Source of the DNA: Gammaproteobacteria bacterium | GTDB lineage: Bacteria; Pseudomonadota; Gammaproteobacteria; Eutrophobiales; Eutrophobiaceae | Reading direction: 5' to 3' | Length of the DNA stretch: 64,000 nt | NCBI GenBank assembly: GCA_965200295.1 | Contig: OZ241347.1 | Span: 2,615,272-2,679,271, forward strand | Shown here: positions 4,157 to 62,968 of the stretch, one piece after another | Position numbering within the stretch: position 1 is the first letter of the stretch | Layout of the letters: each line of letters starts with the position of its first letter | The notes under the pieces: generated by a model | The model's input: the letters and a program-made list of their open reading frames with translations, nothing else | Told to the model about the DNA's origin: nothing | Databases searched by the model: none | Position numbers and translations under genes: made by a program

Positions 4157-5839
4157 ATGACTGAAAGTTTTGCTGAATTATTTGAACAGAGCCAAGTCGA
4201 GACAAAAATGCGGCTTGGCGCTATTCTGAACGGGACCGTCGTTGACGTTTACCAGGATAACGTAATCGTCAGCGCCGGTTTGAAATCGGAGTCCTGGATA
4301 CCCATTGACCAGTTTTATGATGATCAGGGCGAGTTGGAAGTTGCTATCGGTGACGAGGTCGAAGTGGCGCTGGATGCAATAGAAGACGGGCATGGTGAAA
4401 CCCGGTTATCCAGGGAAAAGGCCAAACGGCTGATGGCATGGAACAAGCTGGAGCAGGTCCATGACGAAGATGGGACCGTGTCGGGCATGATCTCCGAGCG
4501 GGTGAAGGGTGGTTTCACCGTTGACGTGGAAGGCATCAGGGCGTTCCTGCCCGGGTCTCTGGTGGATGTGCGTCCGGTCAAGGATACCAGTTACCTGGAG
4601 GGCAAGCCGCTGGAGTTCAAGGTCATCAAGATTGACCGCAAGCGCAGCAACGTAGTGGTGTCGCGCCGGGCCGTGGTGGAAAGCGAAAACATCGCTGAGC
4701 GGCAAAACCTGCTGGACCGTCTGAAAGAAGGAGCCGTCGTCAGGGGCGTGGTCAAGAACCTGACGGATTACGGCGCCTTCCTGGACCTGGGAGGCATCGA
4801 CGGGTTGCTGCATATTACCGACATGGCCTGGAAGCGGGTTAAAGATCCCTCCGAGGTGGTCAGCATCGGCGATGAGATCGACGTCAAGGTGCTGAAGTTC
4901 GACCGTGAACGCAGCCGGGTATCGCTGGGCTTAAAGCAGATGGGTGATGACCCCTGGGGCGATCTGGCCAGACGTTTCTCCGAAGGTTCGCGGTTGCGCG
5001 GCGCGGTCACCAATCTGGCTGACTACGGTTGCTTCGTCGAATTGGAAGAAGGTGTGGAAGGGCTGGTGCATGTATCGGAAATGGACTGGACCAACAAAAA
5101 CATCCATCCCTCGAAACTGGTGCAAACGGGTCAGGAGGTGGATGTTGTGGTGCTGGATATCGACCAGGAACGCCGCCGCATCTCGCTGGGCATGAAACAA
5201 TGCCAACCGAATCCCTGGGAGGAGTTTGCCGCGCTGCATAACAAGGGCGACCGGGTGAGCGGGCAAATCAAGTCCATTACCGACTTCGGCATCTTTATCG
5301 GCCTGCCCGGCGGTATCGACGGTCTGGTGCATTTGTCGGATGTTTCCTGGATGGATGAGGGTGAGCAAGCCCTGAGGAATTACAAGAAAGGCACCCAGAT
5401 GGAAACGGTCGTGCTGGCCGTTGACACCGAGCGGGAACGCATTTCGCTGGGGATAAAGCAACTGGAAAGAGACCCGTTCACGTCTTATGTGGCAGAACAT
5501 CCCAAAGGGACTATCGTTACCGCCAAGGTGATGGCCGTTGAAACCAGATATATCATGGTTGAACTGGCGCAGGGAGTGGATGGGCAGCTGAAGGTATCCG
5601 AGTTGTCGGGAGATCAGAAAACCAGAGACGCAAAAAGCAGCGGCGTGAAAGAAGGGGATGAGCTCGAGGTCAAAATTACTGCCGTGGACAGAAAAAAACG
5701 CACTATTGCCGTCTCCGTAAGGGCGAAAGAATCAGACGAGGAGTCCGCGGCTATCAAGGAGTACACGCCGGATACTTCCTCCGGAGCAAAGCTGGGCGAC
5801 TTGTTGAAAAAGCACCTGGATAACGACGGCGGCAGCTGA
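4157..5839 (+). CDS. rpsA: 30S ribosomal protein S1
   Basis: 560 aa with six S1 repeats; highly conserved N-terminus [10 protein letters not shown]. Confidence 0.95.
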
Positions 5840-44867: not shown

Positions 44868-45257
44868 TCATCCCACATTCAGGAATGCGAGCAGTTCCTG
44901 CGGGTCCAGACATTTTACGACTGAGTATTTAAACCCCTTCGTATCCCGGCTGACAATGGCCTGTGCGCCGACAAGGTACGCAGCTTGTTCTATGACAGCA
45001 TCTTCAAAGTCCTGTATCCGGCTTTTGATCGCCTCCTCAATGACAGGTCGATTAACCGGCGCGATTTCAAACAACTCCAGTAATCGCTGCAAAGCAGCGT
45101 GGGCGTCGGATTTTTCCAATACCTTTGATAACAGGTAGTCAATCGTTGTAACAGTGGTGGCACACAGGTAGGATTCAAGCTCTGACCGCTCAGTCAGGGC
45201 AAAGATTGTTGCAGCGGACTGCACAAACAGTTCCCGTGCGAGCAGGAGGTCGAGCAC
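44868..45257 (-). CDS. PIN-domain ribonuclease toxin (VapC-like)
   Basis: acidic PIN residues present (DTN at the N-terminus, internal E, D, SRD); the true N-terminus probably extends to ~45284 (in-frame LKILVDTNVV upstream of the called GTG), overlapping the antitoxin stop. Confidence 0.7.
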   Translation of the reverse strand: MLDLLLARELFVQSAATIFALTERSELESYLCATTVTTIDYLLSKVLEKSDAHAALQRLLELFEIAPVNRPVIEEAIKSRIQDFEDAVIEQAAYLVGAQAIVSRDTKGFKYSVVKCLDPQELLAFLNVG

Positions 45258-45732: not shown

Positions 45733-46404
45733 TTAGCGTTCCTGGCCGGCGAATACCGCCAGCAGGTGCAGCAGGCTGGTGAACAGGTTGAAGATGGCCA
45801 CGTACAAGGTGATCGTTGCCATGATGTAGTTGGTTTCACCGCCGTGGATCATTGCGCTGGTCTGATACAGGATCATGCCGGACATCAGCAGAATAAAGAT
45901 GGCCGATACCGCCAGCGCCATGGCTGGAATGCTGAAAATGGCGGCGCCGATACCGAGCAGGAACGCCACCAGTATCCCCACCATGAGGAACCCGCCCATG
46001 AAGCTGAAGTCCTTGCGGGTGGTCAGGGCATAACCCGACAGGCCAAGAAAGATCATGCCGGTGCCGCCCAGAGCCAGCATCACCAGTTGTCCGCCATTAC
46101 TGAAGAACTGCAAATACGCGTTCAGGAATGGCCCTAAGGTCAGCCCCATGAAACCGGTCAGGGCAAACACTGCGGCCAGCCCCCAGACGCTGTTTCTCAG
46201 TGCGGAGGTCAGGAACAACAGGCCAAAATAACCGCCCAGAGTGATGAGCAAACCCATACTGGGCAGATTCATGGCCATAGCCACAGCCGCCGTCAGCGCG
46301 CTGAACAGCAAGGTCATGGATAGCAGGATATAAGTGTTACGGATCAGCTTGTTGGTAGCCAGCGCCGACGGCGCCGGACTCGCGACTGCATACTGTTGAC
46401 TCAT
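45733..46404 (-). CDS. Bax-inhibitor-1/YccA-family membrane protein
   Basis: 223 aa; seven TM helices; BI-1 family pattern. Confidence 0.8.
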   Translation of the reverse strand: MSQQYAVASPAPSALATNKLIRNTYILLSMTLLFSALTAAVAMAMNLPSMGLLITLGGYFGLLFLTSALRNSVWGLAAVFALTGFMGLTLGPFLNAYLQFFSNGGQLVMLALGGTGMIFLGLSGYALTTRKDFSFMGGFLMVGILVAFLLGIGAAIFSIPAMALAVSAIFILLMSGMILYQTSAMIHGGETNYIMATITLYVAIFNLFTSLLHLLAVFAGQER

Positions 46405-46499
46405 TACAAACCTCCGATGGTTATGGTGACAATATGAATCATAGGGGCAATGGTGTTACTTTTCAAGATATTTCGGATAAAATGAGGTTTGTGCTGAAC

Positions 46500-46964
46500 G
46501 GAGAGGTGGCAGAGCGGTTGACAAATTCGCCGGGAGCGAATTTGGACAGCGTAGCTGGCCCCGCAGGGGTGACCTACATGGAGGTAGGTCACAGTGCACC
46601 GGGAACCGGTGCGTAGGTACTTGATGAGCTGATGAAGGATCGACAACTCCGAACGGAGAGGTGGCAGAGCGGTTGACAAATTCGCCGGGAGCGAATTTGG
46701 ACAGCGTAGCTGGCCCCGCAGGGGTGACCTACATGGAGGTAGGTCACAGTGCACCGGGAACCGGTGCGTAGGTACTTGATGAGCTGATGAAGGATCGACA
46801 ACTCCGAACGGAGAGGTGGCAGAGCGGTTGACAAATTCGCCGGGAGCGAATTTGGACAGCGTAGCTGGCCCCGCAGGGGTGACCTACATGGAGGTAGGTC
46901 ACAGTGCACCGGGAACCGGTGCGTAGGTACTTGATGAGCTGATGAAGGATCGACAACTCCGAAC
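46500..46964 (+). repeat. three perfect tandem copies of a 155-bp unit, each starting with the first 22 nt of tRNA-Ser (GGAGAGGTGGCAGAGCGGTTGA) followed by 133 nt of hairpin-rich sequence
   Basis: period 155 bp; the copies are identical; the fourth (partial) copy is the 5-prime end of the intact tRNA at 46965. Confidence 0.9.
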
Positions 46965-47055
46965 GGAGAGGTGGCAGAGCGGTTGAATGCACCGGTCTTG
47001 AAAACCGGCAAGGGTTGATAGCCCTTCGTGGGTTCGAATCCCACCCTCTCCGCCA
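46965..47055 (+). tRNA. tRNA-Ser (anticodon UGA), class II with long variable arm
   Basis: cloverleaf: acceptor GGAGAGG/CCUCUCC; anticodon loop CUUGAAA; T-loop GGTTCGAATCC; encoded CCA. Confidence 0.9.
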
Positions 47056-47067
47056 ATAACAACCATG

Positions 47068-47100
47068 AACAAGGGCGGTCATTGTGCCGCCCTTGTTTGG
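47068..47100. terminator. GC-rich hairpin (aacaagggcgg-N8-ccgcccttgtt) followed by TTTGGTTGG
   Basis: intrinsic-terminator-like; lies between the tRNA and the convergent Cys-rich gene. Confidence 0.45.
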
Positions 47101-47174
47101 TTGGGGTTGGTTGCGTTCATTGCAATAACGAATCTGTTTTGAGGGACGATCCGAAGACCGCCCCGGTGCGTCCG

Positions 47175-48098
47175 TCAATCACACCCATAGCCATTGTACT
47201 GGACCTCGAAGATCGCGCGTGGGTTGTTCACGACCCGGTAGTGCTGCGTGTTGTCGCGTAAGTTCACGGCGGTTGGCAGAGTCCAACCATATCCATAATT
47301 AGGGGTCGTATCACAGATCGGATCGCTGATTCTGTTCGGCACCGAATTGCACCATGGGCGGCCTGAGTTGACAGGTCCACTTACCGTACAACCATCCTGC
47401 CACGTATACGTCTCCGCGCCCGGCGCCTGGACACGCACCCGGCAATTTACTTCTTTGTTCGTTATAAAAGTGCACCACGCACCAGTGGCGTTACTGGGTG
47501 GGGTGGGGCAGCAATCATGCCCATTGCACTCGGTCTCCACTTTTCTGCCGGCCCCCGTAAACACCCCCCGCTGCGACGAGATCGCCGTCCCGCCCGGAGC
47601 GCCCCGGCAGTCGCTGCAGGAGGTCAGGAGGCTGACCCGGATCACCCGTCGTTCGGATACCGGCATGGGCGCGTAAGAAGATGCCTTCTGCCTGAAACGG
47701 ATGATGTTGTCCCCTTTTCGGAATGTCACTTTTGCCTGCCCATTGGCCAAATTCGCCCCATCAACAAACACGCCGCCGCCGACATTGTACTCTATAACGT
47801 CGTGGGGGCTGAACTGGAGCCGCGCCTGTGCCCAACCGTCCGTGTAGTCCGATCCCGGTTCAAAGAACCCGCCCCACGCCTCGACATTCACCGCCGATTC
47901 CGTGCTGGGCATTCCCGGATCGCAGGCGTCCAGAACCTGCGGCCCCTTGTATTCGAGCCAGATTTTCGCCTGGCCCTGTGTGTTCTGAGAGGTGGCCCAC
48001 ACCGGCGCGGCCATCACCGTCGCCACCAGCGCGGCGGTTACTGCGGCTAATTTAGCAAGGGGGGGGGGGGGGGGGGGGGGGGTAAGTAAGTGTTTCAT
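47175..48098 (-). CDS. secreted cysteine-rich protein of unknown function with a poly-Pro stretch in the signal-peptide region
   Basis: 307 aa; MKHLLT-P7-LAKLAAVTAALVATVMAAPVWA signal; ~20 Cys; no recognisable family. Confidence 0.55.
   Translation of the reverse strand: MKHLLTPPPPPPPLAKLAAVTAALVATVMAAPVWATSQNTQGQAKIWLEYKGPQVLDACDPGMPSTESAVNVEAWGGFFEPGSDYTDGWAQARLQFSPHDVIEYNVGGGVFVDGANLANGQAKVTFRKGDNIIRFRQKASSYAPMPVSERRVIRVSLLTSCSDCRGAPGGTAISSQRGVFTGAGRKVETECNGHDCCPTPPSNATGAWCTFITNKEVNCRVRVQAPGAETYTWQDGCTVSGPVNSGRPWCNSVPNRISDPICDTTPNYGYGWTLPTAVNLRDNTQHYRVVNNPRAIFEVQYNGYGCD
48059..48082. repeat. 24-nt G homopolymer (poly-C on the coding strand) within codons 6-14 of the Cys-rich protein gene
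   Basis: seen directly; encodes T-P7; slipped-strand contingency-locus candidate. Confidence 0.9.
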
Positions 48099-59834: not shown

Positions 59835-59847
59835 TTTAGAGGTGGCC
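59835..59847. repeat. solo terminal-repeat half (tttagaggtggcc) of the palindromic element family
   Basis: marks the left edge of the low-GC islet. Confidence 0.4.
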
Positions 59848-60992
59848 TATACTACAAAGCCGAGATAATTTTGCCGGTTAATTACCTCGAAGCTGGCATT
59901 GTCATAACTCTTCAGCCATTGTCCGGGAGCGTTTATTTTCTTGTCCGTATATTTGAACTCATACCCGAACAAACGTCCCTCGCGTTCTTCCACCCAATCG
60001 ATTTCTTTCTGGTCGTAAGTGCGCCAGAAGTAATTATTGGTGCGCCGCCGTGAATAGGCCTGTTTTTTTATCCGTTCCGACACCAGGTAATTTTCCCACA
60101 ACATGCCGGTGTCATTCCTTCGTTTAAGCGGATTGAAATTGTTAATGATTGCGTTGCGAATGCCGTTGTCATAAAAATAATAACGCGACGTTTTGGTCAC
60201 TTCCTTGCGCAAGTTGCGGCTGAACCCGCGGATATTGCGGATCACAAATGCTTTTTCGAGTAAATCCAGGTAGCGGGAAACTGTATTTTTGTGTAATTCG
60301 AGTTGATTGCCCAGTTCCGAGACTGACACTTCATTCCCCACCTGGAAGGCAAGCAGGGTCAGCAGGTCAACCAGTTTCCTGGCGTTGCGTATATTTTCCA
60401 GTTCCAGAATATCCTTGAACAGATATGAATCAACCAGCTCATGCAGGTATGCGTGTCGGTCCGGTTCCGAGTTAATTGAGTACAGTTCCGGGTAACTGCC
60501 CGTGATCAAGCGCTGTTCCAGCAGTGATTGGTGAAACTGCAAATCGAATGTTTCTATTTCCTCCGCGGCCGAGATGGGATAGAGATAAAAGGTTTTCTTT
60601 CTGCCGGTGAGAGGTTCACCCACGCTCCCCGCAAGTTCAAACGAAGCAGACCCGCTGGCAATGATTTTGAGTCCCGGGATATGATCGACGAGTAGCTTCA
60701 AATTAAGCCCGATCATGGGAACCTTTTGCGCCTCATCAATAATCATGAGCGAACAATTTCCCACAAACAACCTTAACTGTTCGATAATACAACTCGACAG
60801 GTTTTGCTGGGTTATCCGGTCTTCCCCGGAGAGCAGTTTGATGGCCTCGCCAGAGCCCAATTCCTGCCTGATTTTATCAAGCAGATAAGTTTTACCCACC
60901 CGGCGCGGGCCGTACAGCAGGCAGACCTTGCCAGCCTGCAACGCACTGAGTATTGCTCTCGATAGCTGTCGCTGTATGTCCAAGTTTTTCAA
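59847..60992 (-). CDS. AAA-family ATPase with C-terminal DUF4143 domain
   Basis: Walker A GPRRVGKT; Walker B MIIDEAQ; lower GC than the surroundings. Confidence 0.8.
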   Translation of the reverse strand: MKNLDIQRQLSRAILSALQAGKVCLLYGPRRVGKTYLLDKIRQELGSGEAIKLLSGEDRITQQNLSSCIIEQLRLFVGNCSLMIIDEAQKVPMIGLNLKLLVDHIPGLKIIASGSASFELAGSVGEPLTGRKKTFYLYPISAAEEIETFDLQFHQSLLEQRLITGSYPELYSINSEPDRHAYLHELVDSYLFKDILELENIRNARKLVDLLTLLAFQVGNEVSVSELGNQLELHKNTVSRYLDLLEKAFVIRNIRGFSRNLRKEVTKTSRYYFYDNGIRNAIINNFNPLKRRNDTGMLWENYLVSERIKKQAYSRRRTNNYFWRTYDQKEIDWVEEREGRLFGYEFKYTDKKINAPGQWLKSYDNASFEVINRQNYLGFVV

Positions 60993-61206
60993 AATTCAGG
61001 CAGTTGACTGCCCGAATTATAACAAATACCAGCATAAAGTAACCGGAAAACCGCAATATCTGATCTCGCTTTGGAAAGTCCGAGAAAAAATCTTGTTTGT
61101 ATCGGCCACCCTTCGCACAAAGAACATTCGCACTAAGAACCACTTTACAAGCGGGCAGGCATAACGTATAACTTGTATAGATGGTATTAACAAAGAGGCA
61201 CACGTA

Positions 61207-61452
61207 ATGGAAACACAGGTTATTGTTCGCATCGACTCGCGACTTAAACAGCAAGCTGTGGGCCTGGCCAAGGCCGAAGGTAAAAATGTAAGTCTGGTAA
61301 TCCGGGAACTACTTGAAAAATATGTAAAAGACCGGGATATATCACTGTATATTGATGATCTGTGGGCACGTATGGGTAACAATTTGAAAAATGCAGGGAA
61401 GACACAAAGTGATGTGGAGCAGGCTATCAGGGATGTGAGGAAGCGCTCTTGA
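61207..61452 (+). CDS. ribbon-helix-helix antitoxin-like protein
   Basis: 81 aa; N-terminal beta-strand VIVRIDSRLKQQA; 4-nt overlap (ATGA) with the downstream PIN gene. Confidence 0.6.
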   Translation: METQVIVRIDSRLKQQAVGLAKAEGKNVSLVIRELLEKYVKDRDISLYIDDLWARMGNNLKNAGKTQSDVEQAIRDVRKRS

Positions 61453-61865
61453 CAAGGGTAGTGGTTGATACAAATATTTTTGTATCTTCATTTTTTGGCG
61501 GGAAGCCGAAAAAGGTCATCGATTTATGGAAGCGGGGTCAAATCACGATTTGTTTATCCCGGCATATTATTGAAGAGTATGTCGAAGTTCTGATGAGGCT
61601 GGGTTTGCAAAATGAGCAGCAGATTGAAGCGCTGCTGGATGTATTTGCAAGGAATTATCATTCTGTTTACACGGCACAAACACCGGAGTTAGGCACAATC
61701 GTCAAGAATGATCCGGATGATGATAAGTTTTTAGAATGTGCGATAGCATTGCAGGCAGAGTATATTGTTTCAGGAGACAAGGCATTGCTGGAAGTTGAGA
61801 AGTACATGAATGTCTCAATCCTGTCACCTGCGGATTTTCTGCAAGAGACATGGCTTAAGGTATGA
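61449..61865 (+). CDS. PIN-domain toxin-like protein (PF13470-type)
   Basis: 138 aa; VVVDTNIFVS at the N-terminus; internal E and D residues at canonical PIN spacing. Confidence 0.75.
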   Translation: MTRVVVDTNIFVSSFFGGKPKKVIDLWKRGQITICLSRHIIEEYVEVLMRLGLQNEQQIEALLDVFARNYHSVYTAQTPELGTIVKNDPDDDKFLECAIALQAEYIVSGDKALLEVEKYMNVSILSPADFLQETWLKV

Positions 61866-61902
61866 AATGAACAGAACCGGCTGCTGTTGTTATTCGATTA
61901 TG

Positions 61903-61935
61903 GCCACCTCTAAATTCTCATGAAGATTTAGATGT
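61903..61935. repeat. diverged palindromic element (ggccacctctaaattctcatgaagatttagatg)
   Basis: right edge of the low-GC islet. Confidence 0.45.
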
Positions 61936-61939
61936 GTCC

Positions 61940-62968
61940 TCAGGAACAATACTGAACATGAAGCCGTATCGCTCCAATTCGATCGATGGATACTTCAAGT
62001 GTGTCCCCATGTTGATATTTCGGATATGCGACCGCGCGCAGCTGTTGAATATCAGTGAAGCCTGGGACTTCCACTATTTCCTCGTCTGCGGCAATTCCGC
62101 CACTTCCCAGCGCACCAACAAGAATGACGTCTCCTGCTTCCAGTTCATAGCTGGAGGTGACCAGACTGAGCGCGTCAGGGATCCCCAGTACATAATCGTC
62201 TGTGTAGCCTTTTTGATGTAGCCCGCCGTTGACTCTGAGGACAACCTCCATCAGTTCGTTATGATTGATGCCGGTTGCGATCCAGGGTCCAAGCGGGCAA
62301 AAGGCAGGGTAATTTTTAGCCTTGTCAAAATCGTCAACTGCGATTTCCGGAGCAAAACCGTCAAATGCGCAAGTGTATCCGAAAATGTAATTGCCGGCCT
62401 CGGTTGCGGATATATTACTGGCCCGGCGACTTATAATCACGGCCAACTCTGCGCTGCCGCTGATACCTGTAGCGCCTTCGGGGATACATACCCTGTCGCC
62501 AGGGCCTGCGACACTTGAGCTTGCTTTCTCAAATACCGCAGGCGGTTTCAGTGGTGACGCCGGCATACTGCCTTTGCCGGTAATATCTGCACCGGTCATC
62601 TTGCGTCGGTGCCAATAACTGTTACTGCCGAGGCCGATTATCCTGTTGGGTGTTACCGGGGCAAGCAGCTGAACATCAGCAAGCGCCAGCGCGCGCTCGG
62701 ACACTGACCAGTCGCCGAACAAGTCACCATCCAGGCCCATGACTGTTGCTCCTCGCACCAAGCCATATTCAACATTATTGCGGTATTCGTAGCGGGCGAT
62801 AAATTGCGGGGATTGGTTCGAAGCAGCTGCTGTATCGTAGGACCAGGAGGACTTGGCGCTACTGTCAGCTTCGACCTGCGCAAATGACAAGACAGGCTGC
62901 AATACCGCGGTTAAACCCGCGGCAGCGCCGGTTTTAAGCAGGCGGCGTCTGGTGTAATGATGAGTCAT
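61940..62968 (-). CDS. fumarylacetoacetate-hydrolase (FAH)-family protein with Tat signal peptide
   Basis: start at MTHHYTRRRLLKTGAAAGLTAVLQPVLSFAQ (twin-arginine motif); C-terminal FAH fold; 4-nt overlap with the upstream sulfatase gene. Confidence 0.7.
   Translation of the reverse strand: MTHHYTRRRLLKTGAAAGLTAVLQPVLSFAQVEADSSAKSSWSYDTAAASNQSPQFIARYEYRNNVEYGLVRGATVMGLDGDLFGDWSVSERALALADVQLLAPVTPNRIIGLGSNSYWHRRKMTGADITGKGSMPASPLKPPAVFEKASSSVAGPGDRVCIPEGATGISGSAELAVIISRRASNISATEAGNYIFGYTCAFDGFAPEIAVDDFDKAKNYPAFCPLGPWIATGINHNELMEVVLRVNGGLHQKGYTDDYVLGIPDALSLVTSSYELEAGDVILVGALGSGGIAADEEIVEVPGFTDIQQLRAVAYPKYQHGDTLEVSIDRIGAIRLHVQYCS

Follow-up and report, generated by a model that had tools for sequence, protein, structure and literature searches.

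RtT-like tandem repeats on the 5' side of a gammaproteobacterial tRNA-Ser(UGA) gene and the family of short hairpin elements within them

Tandem repeats linked to tRNA genes have been known in E. coli since the 1970s, from tyrT and its rtT RNA, with an unexplained origin and an unclear function. Egan and Landy are said to have described the tyrT repeats in 1978 as units of 178 bp in 3.14 copies. One of these repeat units encodes rttR (PMC3318445, citing Bosl and Kersten 1991), and the rtT RNA is thought to modulate the stringent response, its mode of action being unknown (bioRxiv 10.1101/2024.07.17.603846). Here we describe an array of this kind in front of a tRNA-Ser(UGA) gene in a 64,000-nucleotide stretch of a gammaproteobacterial genome (assembly GCA_965200295.1, contig OZ241347.1, positions 2,615,272 to 2,679,271; hereafter the window). 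Each unit contains a hairpin-rich element of 72 nt, which we named E. We consider the array to be an RtT-like tRNA-linked repeat in a 5', D-loop form, and the E family also accounts for how two well-known E. coli sequences are arranged.

The array and its counterparts in E. coli

Tandem Repeats Finder detected one array in the window, at 46496-46986 on the plus strand, with a period of 155, 3.2 copies, 100% matches and no indels. It holds 3.17 perfect copies of a 155-bp unit, 465 bp of repeat in total. Units 1 to 3 lie at 46500-46654, 46655-46809 and 46810-46964 (+), and the partial copy that closes the array is formed by the beginning of the real tRNA. The intact tRNA-Ser(UGA) (46965-47055, +; ARAGORN; Rfam tRNA 62.2 bits) is the sole tRNA gene in the window. 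Its 5' 22-mer, GGAGAGGTGGCAGAGCGGTTGA, is found exactly at 46500, 46655, 46810 and 46965, four copies where none is expected by chance. A sequence-only reading of this DNA had described three perfect tandem units with the tRNA as the fourth copy, each starting with the first 22 nt of the tRNA. Both points hold, with the small correction that the exact repeat begins 4 nt further upstream, with GAAC; 26 bp recur four times and the 129 bp between them are identical. The hairpins named in that reading (caaattcgc/gcgaatttg, gacctac/gtaggtc and gcaccgg/ccggtgc) are also real, and the unit folds far better than shuffled sequences on both strands (RNA z = -4.2 on the plus strand).

The unit is composed of three parts, a pseudo-tRNA 5' fragment, the 72-nt E, and a degenerate tRNA remnant with leader. 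The pseudo-tRNA-Ser fragment (46500-46521, 46655-46676 and 46810-46831, +; identical to 46965-46986) comprises the acceptor 5' strand, the D-stem 5' strand and the D-loop as far as GGTTGA, and breaks at GGTTGA^A, the insertion site of E. E follows at 46522-46593, 46677-46748 and 46832-46903 (+), the only positions in the window matched by our covariance model R1 (see below), with 75.3 bits each and an E-value of 5e-14 for copy 1. Its helices are H1 (CAAATTCGC-CGGGA-GCGAATTTG), H2 (CAGC-GTA-GCTG), H3 (CCCC-GCA-GGGG) and H4 (TGACCTAC-ATGGAG-GTAGGTCA), and the element ends with ..ACA. The fold has z = -6.3 as single-stranded DNA (ssDNA) and -4.0 as RNA.

Behind E stands a further hairpin, H5 (GTGCACCGG-GAA-CCGGTGC; 46594-46612, 46749-46767 and 46904-46922, +), which has TGCACCGG in common with the real tRNA. 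Judged by its sequence, H5 is a remnant of the tRNA segment after the D-loop (ATGCACCGG: D-stem 3' strand and anticodon-stem 5' strand), remodelled to a perfect hairpin, with the anticodon loop reduced to GAA. The junction runs GGTTGA, E, (G)TGCACCGG; the corresponding stretch of the intact tRNA, which lies 132 nt downstream of E copy 3, is GGTTGA-ATGCACCGG. The unit has no variable arm, T-arm or acceptor 3' strand. When the unit tail was aligned with the rest of the tRNA, the alignment beat 1986 of 2000 shuffles. The tail with the leader of the next copy (..ACTTGATGAGCTGATGAAGGATCGACAACTCC-GAAC; 46613-46654, 46768-46809 and 46923-46964, +) is moderately conserved in alignment with the relatives L152 and L153 (numbers with the prefix L denote loci), and its CUCC is able to pair with GGAG at the unit start in the minimum free energy fold of the unit.

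These features indicate that the unit is a pseudo-tRNA interrupted by E, rather than a bespoke RNA gene. The 133-nt insert had been read as one unit-specific RNA, and this does not agree with a discrete 72-nt E that occurs in hundreds of unrelated contexts, protein-coding genes included, followed by a decayed tRNA remnant. The idea of a degenerate tRNA is kept in modified form, a tRNA and leader origin being limited to the 61 nt after E. What stands of the structured-RNA proposal is a module whose pairing is selected, as judged by covariation, and which has an E. coli analogue, RtT, with an annotated small RNA (sRNA), rttR; the unit-specific RNA gene falls away. It had also been proposed that the repeats multiply the tRNA promoter. 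This is unsupported, since a promoter scan found no sigma-70-like site on the plus strand of the unit.

Like the RtT repeats, the window array consists of tandem units of about 155-180 bp on a tRNA gene (3.17 copies here), each with a terminal tRNA fragment, namely 22 nt of the 5' end here and 18-19 nt of the 3' end in RtT. In both, the units lie within the transcription unit of the tRNA. The core of the RtT unit is likewise a cluster of hairpins, and it ends with GAGUA. The tyrT-tyrV region of E. coli K-12 gave four matches to RF00391 (RtT) of 133-137 bits; the annotation there is rttR and tpr. In each RtT unit, ..GGUUCGA is followed by CUCGAGCG..GAGUA and then by AUCCUUCCCCCACCACCA, with a break in the T-loop at the same GA^A position, and R1 has a weak match (12.6-14 bits) at every repeat. 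The two arrays differ in that the window units are on the 5' side with a D-loop break whereas RtT units have a T-loop break, and in that H1 and the GGA loops are no longer present in the RtT core. The window array does not belong to RF00391 (gathering threshold 45 bits), as no RtT match was obtained at 46300-47300 at E <= 10 or window-wide at gathering.

The second E. coli counterpart is found in the terminator region of rrnB and other rrn operons. When a consensus-like E (L147) was used as blastn query, about two thirds of complete E. coli genomes gave matches; about 3945 of 5426 complete genomes have 1-3 chromosomal copies of E (up to 9 places per genome). The E. coli copy lies in the spacer between the two terminators after the 5S rRNA, with R1 scores of 76-77 bits, at about 4171839-4171911 of NC_000913.3 (L163 340-412; L161 1501-1573), and is unannotated in RefSeq. 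In K-12 rrnB the order from T1 to T2 is ..T1..GCTCTCCTGAGTAGGA, CAAATCCGCCGGGAGCGGATTTGAACGTTGCGAAGCAACGGCCCGGAGGGTGGCGGGCAGGACGCCCGCCATA, AACTGCCAGGCATCAAATTAAGC..T2, and E is flanked by a duplicate of the 5S 3' end that has its break at GGGA^AC. As in the tRNA-linked units, an intact RNA gene and its terminator are followed by a short fragment ending with GA, E, the duplicated 3' end of the RNA (AACTGCCAGGCATCAAAT) and a second terminator. The rrnB arrangement differs in its host gene, 5S rRNA, and in being a single copy on the downstream side. We take the T1-T2 spacer with E to be the cassette carried by many cloning vectors; E was also found in small plasmids and engineered strains, presumably through such cassettes.

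Window E and rrnB E aligned better than all 2000 shuffles (0 as good), and so did rrnB E and the RtT core (0); for window E and the RtT core the count was 436, which is not significant. The homology of the window element to RtT would therefore be transitive, via rrnB E. On this sequence comparison, we interpret the window array as a counterpart of the tyrT repeats on the 5' side, of D-loop type, both apparently built on one wider element family.

We fetched the same locus from relatives, as long-read contigs, by means of homologues of the neighbouring BI-1 protein (Bax1-I/YccA family). One upstream unit was found in L152, L153, L154, L156 and L159, and two in L157, L158 and L160. L155 has three upstream units and an extra E that abuts another E. 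L151 has no upstream unit; TTGA^A is missing from its D-loop, and it carries two units of T-loop type downstream of the tRNA instead. The single-unit state occurs in strains with a BI-1 protein 88-93% identical to that of the window. Unlike the identical copies of the window, the units of the relatives' arrays show slight differences. These counts imply that the 1.17-copy state is old and that the three identical units of the window are a recent expansion, by unequal recombination or slippage between units as we infer. Recent amplification had already been suggested from the window alone, and relatives with 1-4 units, a single one in close strains, agree with it. Across the strains E shows compensatory changes, from C:G to T:A in H1 (L153, L155 and L160) and from A:T to G:C in H4 (L152), and the intergenic spacer next to them has diverged more than either E or H5.

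Perfect tandem repeats are error-prone in assembly, and the copies here are 100% identical, so a single unit expanded by the assembler could give the same picture. We consider this very improbable. A repeat of 465 bp is easily spanned by long reads, and related long-read genomes have two, three and four E copies in units that differ slightly. Moreover, three independent short-read metagenome contigs encode the identical neighbouring Bax1-I/YccA protein and all of them stop inside unit 1, one at a branch point behind GGTTGA, the other two with the insert present and 0-2 single-nucleotide differences in it. This is expected of short-read assemblers at a tandem repeat, as two or more units exceed the k-mer length. 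With 0-3 upstream units, in one case with an extra E, the relatives' long-read contigs also speak against an artefact of a single assembly.

Structure and insertion sites of the E family

Public collections were queried with the first hairpin of the window insert, which recurred in very different contexts, followed by hairpins of other sequence in the same layout. The covariance model R1 was built from 28 copies and has 73 positions and four helices, H1-H4. It found 137 E copies in 100 sources (99 fetched loci and the window); more than 150 copies were retrieved, and more than 120 metagenome contigs matched. The search of other genomes by homology and covariance, recommended on the basis of the window, therefore succeeded, with strong covariation in all four helices. 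A genome scan gave 23 stretches. Proteobacteria, for the most part Gammaproteobacteria, account for about a dozen, as metagenome-assembled genomes (MAGs) or genomes, and five of these loci were clear relatives of the insert core. The scan pattern had a 6-nt loop, against 5 nt in the window, so the window type was outside the scan and divergent relatives were found. Matches to E were present in viral contigs as well; blastn against the phage collection gave tRNA-Ser matches only and no E. No Rfam family covered E in the window at gathering, at 46300-47300 at E <= 10, in nine related loci or in E. coli rrnB, the sole match being a 17-bit hint of RtT. No description was found in the literature by sequence string or by concept, and the family is apparently undescribed.

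E consists of C-AAATTCGC-CNGGA-GCGAATTT (H1), the linker GRAC, H2, H3, H4 and a short tail ending with YA. H2 is variable, often with a C-GNA-G triloop; H3 is GCCC-GNA-GGGC; H4 has a variable stem and the loop A(N)GGAU closed by C-G. The window copies have the same order of helices and linker, GGA in the H1 and H4 loops (CGGGA and ATGGAG), the YA end, and an insertion point between GA and A of a recognisable host sequence. Of 131 distinct copies, 124 have GGA in the loop of H1 and 119 have it in that of H4, and the closing pair of the H4 loop is C-G in 123.

In the alignment of E, 92.3% of helix cells were paired, compared with 74.9% after column shuffling and 19-43% with slid partners, and 24 of 25 pairs showed changes on both sides. 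This pattern clearly points to selection on pairing. Within the helices G.T exceeded A.C by about 2:1 (66 vs 29), which weakly favours a structure of the top strand and does not separate RNA from ssDNA.

Two further repeats were noticed alongside E. A second repeat family, with at least four copies in one MAG, was seen in Gammaproteobacteria MAGs JBNKDE01 / JBNKUM01 (L006 3681, L010 4112, L011 2470, L021 7191 and L024 1126); it shares with E only an H1-like hairpin (AAATTCGC-NNGGAN-GCGAATTT), set in another long-range stem (CAAAAGTGCAGTCAAATCG...CGATTTGGCTGTGCTTTTG). On Methylomonas-like contigs, L019 (1740-1880) and about 15 similar loci (e.g. L047, L058, L082, L103, L115 and L125) have E within a conserved palindrome (GGATACTTTCTTTTGGCG.CGCA, E, GCGAAAGTATC), which is either a second repeat family serving as target or part of one composite element.

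The ends of E, CAAAT... and ...YA, are fixed by independent junctions of several types, in tRNA T- and D-loops, in protein-coding genes and, head-to-tail, between E copies in L155, L088, L120 and L132. They carry no terminal inverted repeats, and no target duplication is present. Over distinct contexts the flanks are G at -2 (78/124), A at -1 (108/124) and A at +1 (88/120), so the target amounts to approximately GA^A, and GGTTCGA^ATCC of the T-loop is its favoured form. In the T-loops of tRNA-Ser, Gln, Pro, Thr and Arg sequences, E separates GGTTCGA from ATCC. GTTCGA stands directly 5' of E in 26 distinct contexts, all of them sense and none antisense, although TTCGAA is palindromic. D-loop junctions in class II tRNAs were GGAGAGATGGCCGAGTGGCTGA followed by E in L076, ..GTGGTTGA followed by E in L126 and L120, and ..GTGGTCGA followed by E in L092, where there are three tandem units. 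These D-loop arrays are independent analogues of the window array, and their units have the anticodon arm remodelled as in H5. Altogether 48 E copies lie within 650 nt of a tRNA on the same strand (Ser, Gln, Pro, Thr, Arg and others), and an intact gene copy always adjoins the stable-RNA fragment interrupted by E.

In downstream-type units an inverted copy of the tRNA 3' end comes first and is paired to the direct fragment; this pairing is the closing helix of the Rfam RtT consensus. L120 (2250-3450) contains a tRNA-Ser(GGA) with a D-loop-type unit upstream, in which one E is nested in another at a GA^A site, and several T-loop-type units downstream. The latter include E-E and E-E-E head-to-tail runs, and every unit starts with an inverted copy of the tRNA 3' end. 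In L008 (5700-6720, -) and L016 (2300-2960, +), 4-5 diverged units of T-loop type stand behind an rplM-rpsI-tRNA-Gln(CUG) operon, each about 185 nt long and with its own terminator and a 10-bp closing helix (GGGACUAGGA/UCCUAGUCCC). Their position between housekeeping genes indicates old, maintained arrays, not fresh duplications.

E was also found in protein-coding genes. In L040, cutting E out restores a 348-aa rve transposase open reading frame (ORF), ..VLTDNGKE followed by FTDRF.., and E frameshifts the host ORF in both L040 and L147. In a type I restriction HsdS gene of L039, the two specificity (target-recognition) domains are separated by a 78-nt E in frame (746-824), which on translation would add 26 residues (..TNSPGANLNAGQRAGGPKAEGRESPS..). 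IS91-like transposase genes in L147 (730-801), L033 (8100-8623) and L110 (minus strand) bear one to five E copies, in both orientations in L110 and L033, with up to five copies in 3.3 kb. L110 and L147 share one E at the same codon, just before the HUH motif (..LNL, then N/S.HFH..), which may reflect shared ancestry, a hotspot, or a hint at involvement of a rolling-circle transposase.

The precise boundaries of E, its in-frame position in HsdS and its place in T- and D-loops, which are also sites of archaeal non-canonical tRNA introns, would fit an intron-like sequence removed from RNA, leaving the interrupted tRNAs functional. This is highly unlikely. Distal to E, the tRNA sequence is cut short or has decayed; the anticodon loop of the window unit has shrunk to GAA, and the variable arm, T-arm and acceptor 3' strand are missing. 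Besides, an intact copy is always adjacent, E at about 72 nt is far below the size of group I/II ribozymes, and the insertions in L040 and L147 cause frameshifts.

Since tRNA genes are classic integration sites, the repeats might instead be scars of integrase-mediated insertion and excision of islands or satellites, that is, tandem att sites. Two E copies were first met in IMG/VR provirus contigs, near contig ends, and the T-loop-type units duplicate the tRNA 3' end as an attR does. Here, however, the duplicated part is the 5' end. Pfam searches of the window ORFs around the locus and in the low-GC region of the window found no integrase, transposase or recombinase, and the tRNA 3' 25-mer is single in the 64 kb, so no tRNA 3' direct repeat bounds an integrase-coding element at the locus. 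Elsewhere, the L008 and L016 arrays stand between rplM-rpsI-tRNA-Gln and pyrD or rpiA with no integrase, no core sequence is common to both sides of E, and E interrupts ORFs that have no homology to tRNA. An att origin is thus very improbable, in agreement with the sequence-only reading, which had set the array apart from a classic integrase att scar. Its further suggestion that this tRNA is an island integration site finds no support in the window, where the duplicated 3' end it asked for is absent.

Probable mobility of E and possible RNA roles

We think it probable that the unit is a dead partial copy of tRNA-Ser interrupted by a mobile E, in an array that has recently expanded. E would be non-autonomous mobile DNA moved in trans, inserting at GA^A with neither inverted repeats nor target duplication. 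It would prefer single-stranded loops of stable-RNA genes, namely the T-loop (GGTTCGA^ATCC), the class-II D-loop (GGYYGA^A) and the 5S 3' region. Insertion into a single essential RNA gene would be lethal, and only insertions in tandem with an intact copy would survive; such a filter would leave, time and again, an intact RNA gene beside a fragment fused to E. In the lineage of the window, an old single unit would have become three identical copies by unequal recombination or slippage, and arrays would in general grow and shrink by homologous recombination. The wider proposal is tentative, though we take it seriously. E may represent a new class of proteobacterial mobile elements of about 70 nt that home to GA^A in RNA-gene loops and survive as 'fragment plus E' beside the intact gene; they would be the origin of the tyrT RtT repeats and the rrnB T1-T2 spacer, with GGA loops serving the transposase or CsrA-type regulators.

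How E would move is more doubtful. An HUH-type ssDNA transposase might act in trans on a non-template or lagging-template strand able to fold like tRNA. The loop-only, sense-only pattern in tRNAs, the C-GNA-G triloops and the absence of both inverted repeats and target duplications all suggest such an ssDNA mechanism. C-GNA-G triloops are typical of very stable ssDNA mini-hairpins. Like the hairpin elements mobilised by HUH enzymes (PATEs derived from IS200/IS605, and REP/REPIN with RAYT), E has neither terminal inverted repeats nor target duplication, and it has seamless insertions, as the restored ORF of L040 demonstrates, hairpins with similar loops at both ends, strongly strand-specific insertion and a very stable ssDNA fold. 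It differs from them in its GA^A preference on both flanks and in hairpins that start 1-6 nt from the element tips, closer than in IS608; REPs are extragenic and have a GTAG head. No TnpA, TnpB or RAYT, and hence no cognate Y1 HUH TnpA with a full-length parent as PATEs have, was found among the 1497 ORFs within 3 kb of E copies, whole genomes not having been searched. By-eye comparison of the ends and target of E with the end rules of integron attC, IS91, IS110 and Helitrons gave no fit.

Several points weigh against a mobile E. Beyond orthologous loci, clusters of the same 1497 ORFs contained no recurrent transposase or recombinase. A GA^A target of about 3 nt plus context, with preference on two flanks, is atypical of IS200/IS605 elements. 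Mobility is deduced from restored ORFs and from paralogous intact genes. The regular trimming of the tRNA fragments and the inverted 3' copies downstream are not fully explained by insertion into a duplicate and subsequent decay. Finally, the conservation of E and H5 together with the GGA loops suggests a function at host or RNA level over purely selfish DNA.

That last point leads to the alternative that E is primarily a functional sRNA module, a CsrA/RsmA decoy or an RtT-like regulator that would owe high transcription to its place in tRNA operons and be cut out by tRNA-processing enzymes, with the array as a dosage amplification. We take the loop of H4, A(N)GGAU closed by C-G, to match the SELEX (systematic evolution of ligands by exponential enrichment) consensus of CsrA (RUACARGGAUGU) and of RsmE (CANGGANG). 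Like the Csr/Rsm sponges (CsrB, RsmX/Y/Z), E has GGA in hairpin loops, as C-G-closed ANGGAN, with several sites per transcript. Tandem gene copies also occur in rsmX. The strong covariation of four helices, the frequency of GGA in both loops, the invariably sense orientation within tRNA genes (26 distinct T-loop contexts vs 0) and the slower evolution of E than of the neighbouring spacer would all fit this alternative, and the related RtT is an annotated sRNA, rttR (PMC3318445), said to affect the stringent response (bioRxiv 10.1101/2024.07.17.603846).

On the other side, E is located in protein-coding genes, in both orientations (L110 and L033) and nested within E, unlike a dedicated sRNA gene. 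It has no match to the Rfam models of CsrB, RsmX, RsmY and RsmZ. No GacA/UvrY box (TGTAAG-N6-CTTACA) was present near the array, window-wide matches being at chance level, and the unit has no plus-strand promoter. The C-GNA-G triloops of H2 and H3 and the position of the E. coli rrnB copy behind the strong T1 terminator also argue against it. We therefore judge a primary sRNA function unlikely. It is compatible with a mobile E as a secondary, co-opted role, and such co-option, as decoy or RtT-like regulator, is possible without being probable. E is probably made as RNA too, because the array lies in the transcription unit of the tRNA as the RtT repeats do in the tyrT operon.

Other small elements are known from RNA genes. 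Rickettsia palindromic elements are small and insert in genes for proteins and for RNAs, in some cases in frame. The eukaryotic Dada transposons are specific for tRNA and snRNA genes as targets (PMC3706591). Neither has any sequence or structural relation to E. Dada elements are autonomous DDE transposons with target duplications, and the Rickettsia elements are confined to Rickettsia.

E ties together RtT-type repeats, the rrnB T1-T2 spacer of countless plasmids and hundreds of gene-interrupting 72-nt copies, a link not found in the literature searched. If it is mobile, by a new mobilisation mechanism, E would be among the smallest known elements and would target the most conserved sequences of the genome. 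Should CsrA instead bind the GGA hairpins of E, a regulator decoy coupled to growth rate would be present in tRNA and rRNA operons. Either reading is directly testable in E. coli.

Neighbourhood of the array and further observations

The divergent neighbour of the array is the Bax1-I/YccA family gene (45733-46404, -; Pfam), with a promoter-like site at 46466-46438 (-). A terminator-like hairpin is located just 3' of the tRNA at 47068-47097; it was scored on the minus strand and is palindromic. For the downstream ORF at 47175-48098, a search for other contigs that encode it gave no match.

Three further readings of the unit were tried and rejected. CUGAUGA in the tail resembles a hammerhead ribozyme, and no ribozyme model matched; GGUUCGAC with its hairpin resembles a tmRNA, and there was no tmRNA match and the helix polarity was different. 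An endless minus-strand ORF through the array fails because each unit contains one stop and its length of 155 is not divisible by 3. Three overlapping ORFs of 116-157 aa (window 46404-47178, -) do cross the repeats, with only one stop codon per 155-nt unit over three frames; GC-rich hairpins probably produce them as an artefact. An RtT repeat of E. coli, by comparison, has an annotated ORF of 29 aa within it, the 'protamine-like' tpr.

At 44868-45257 (-), a PIN_3-domain gene stands beside a DUF6364 gene (seen in L001 and L003), and the two, between the BI-1 and IspD-like genes, are likely a toxin-antitoxin pair. The PIN_3 segment varies among close relatives, L151-L160 bearing other small HTH or MqsA-like genes. 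A low-GC dip at 60001-62000 (45% vs about 59%) occurs with an AAA_14/DUF4143 ATPase gene (59847-60992, -), and a gene of this family adjoins the tRNA-Ser locus in L157 and L158. On a viral contig that also bears E, L005 has a match to the type II hammerhead ribozyme at 4865-4932 (RF02276, 42 bits, gathering 37).

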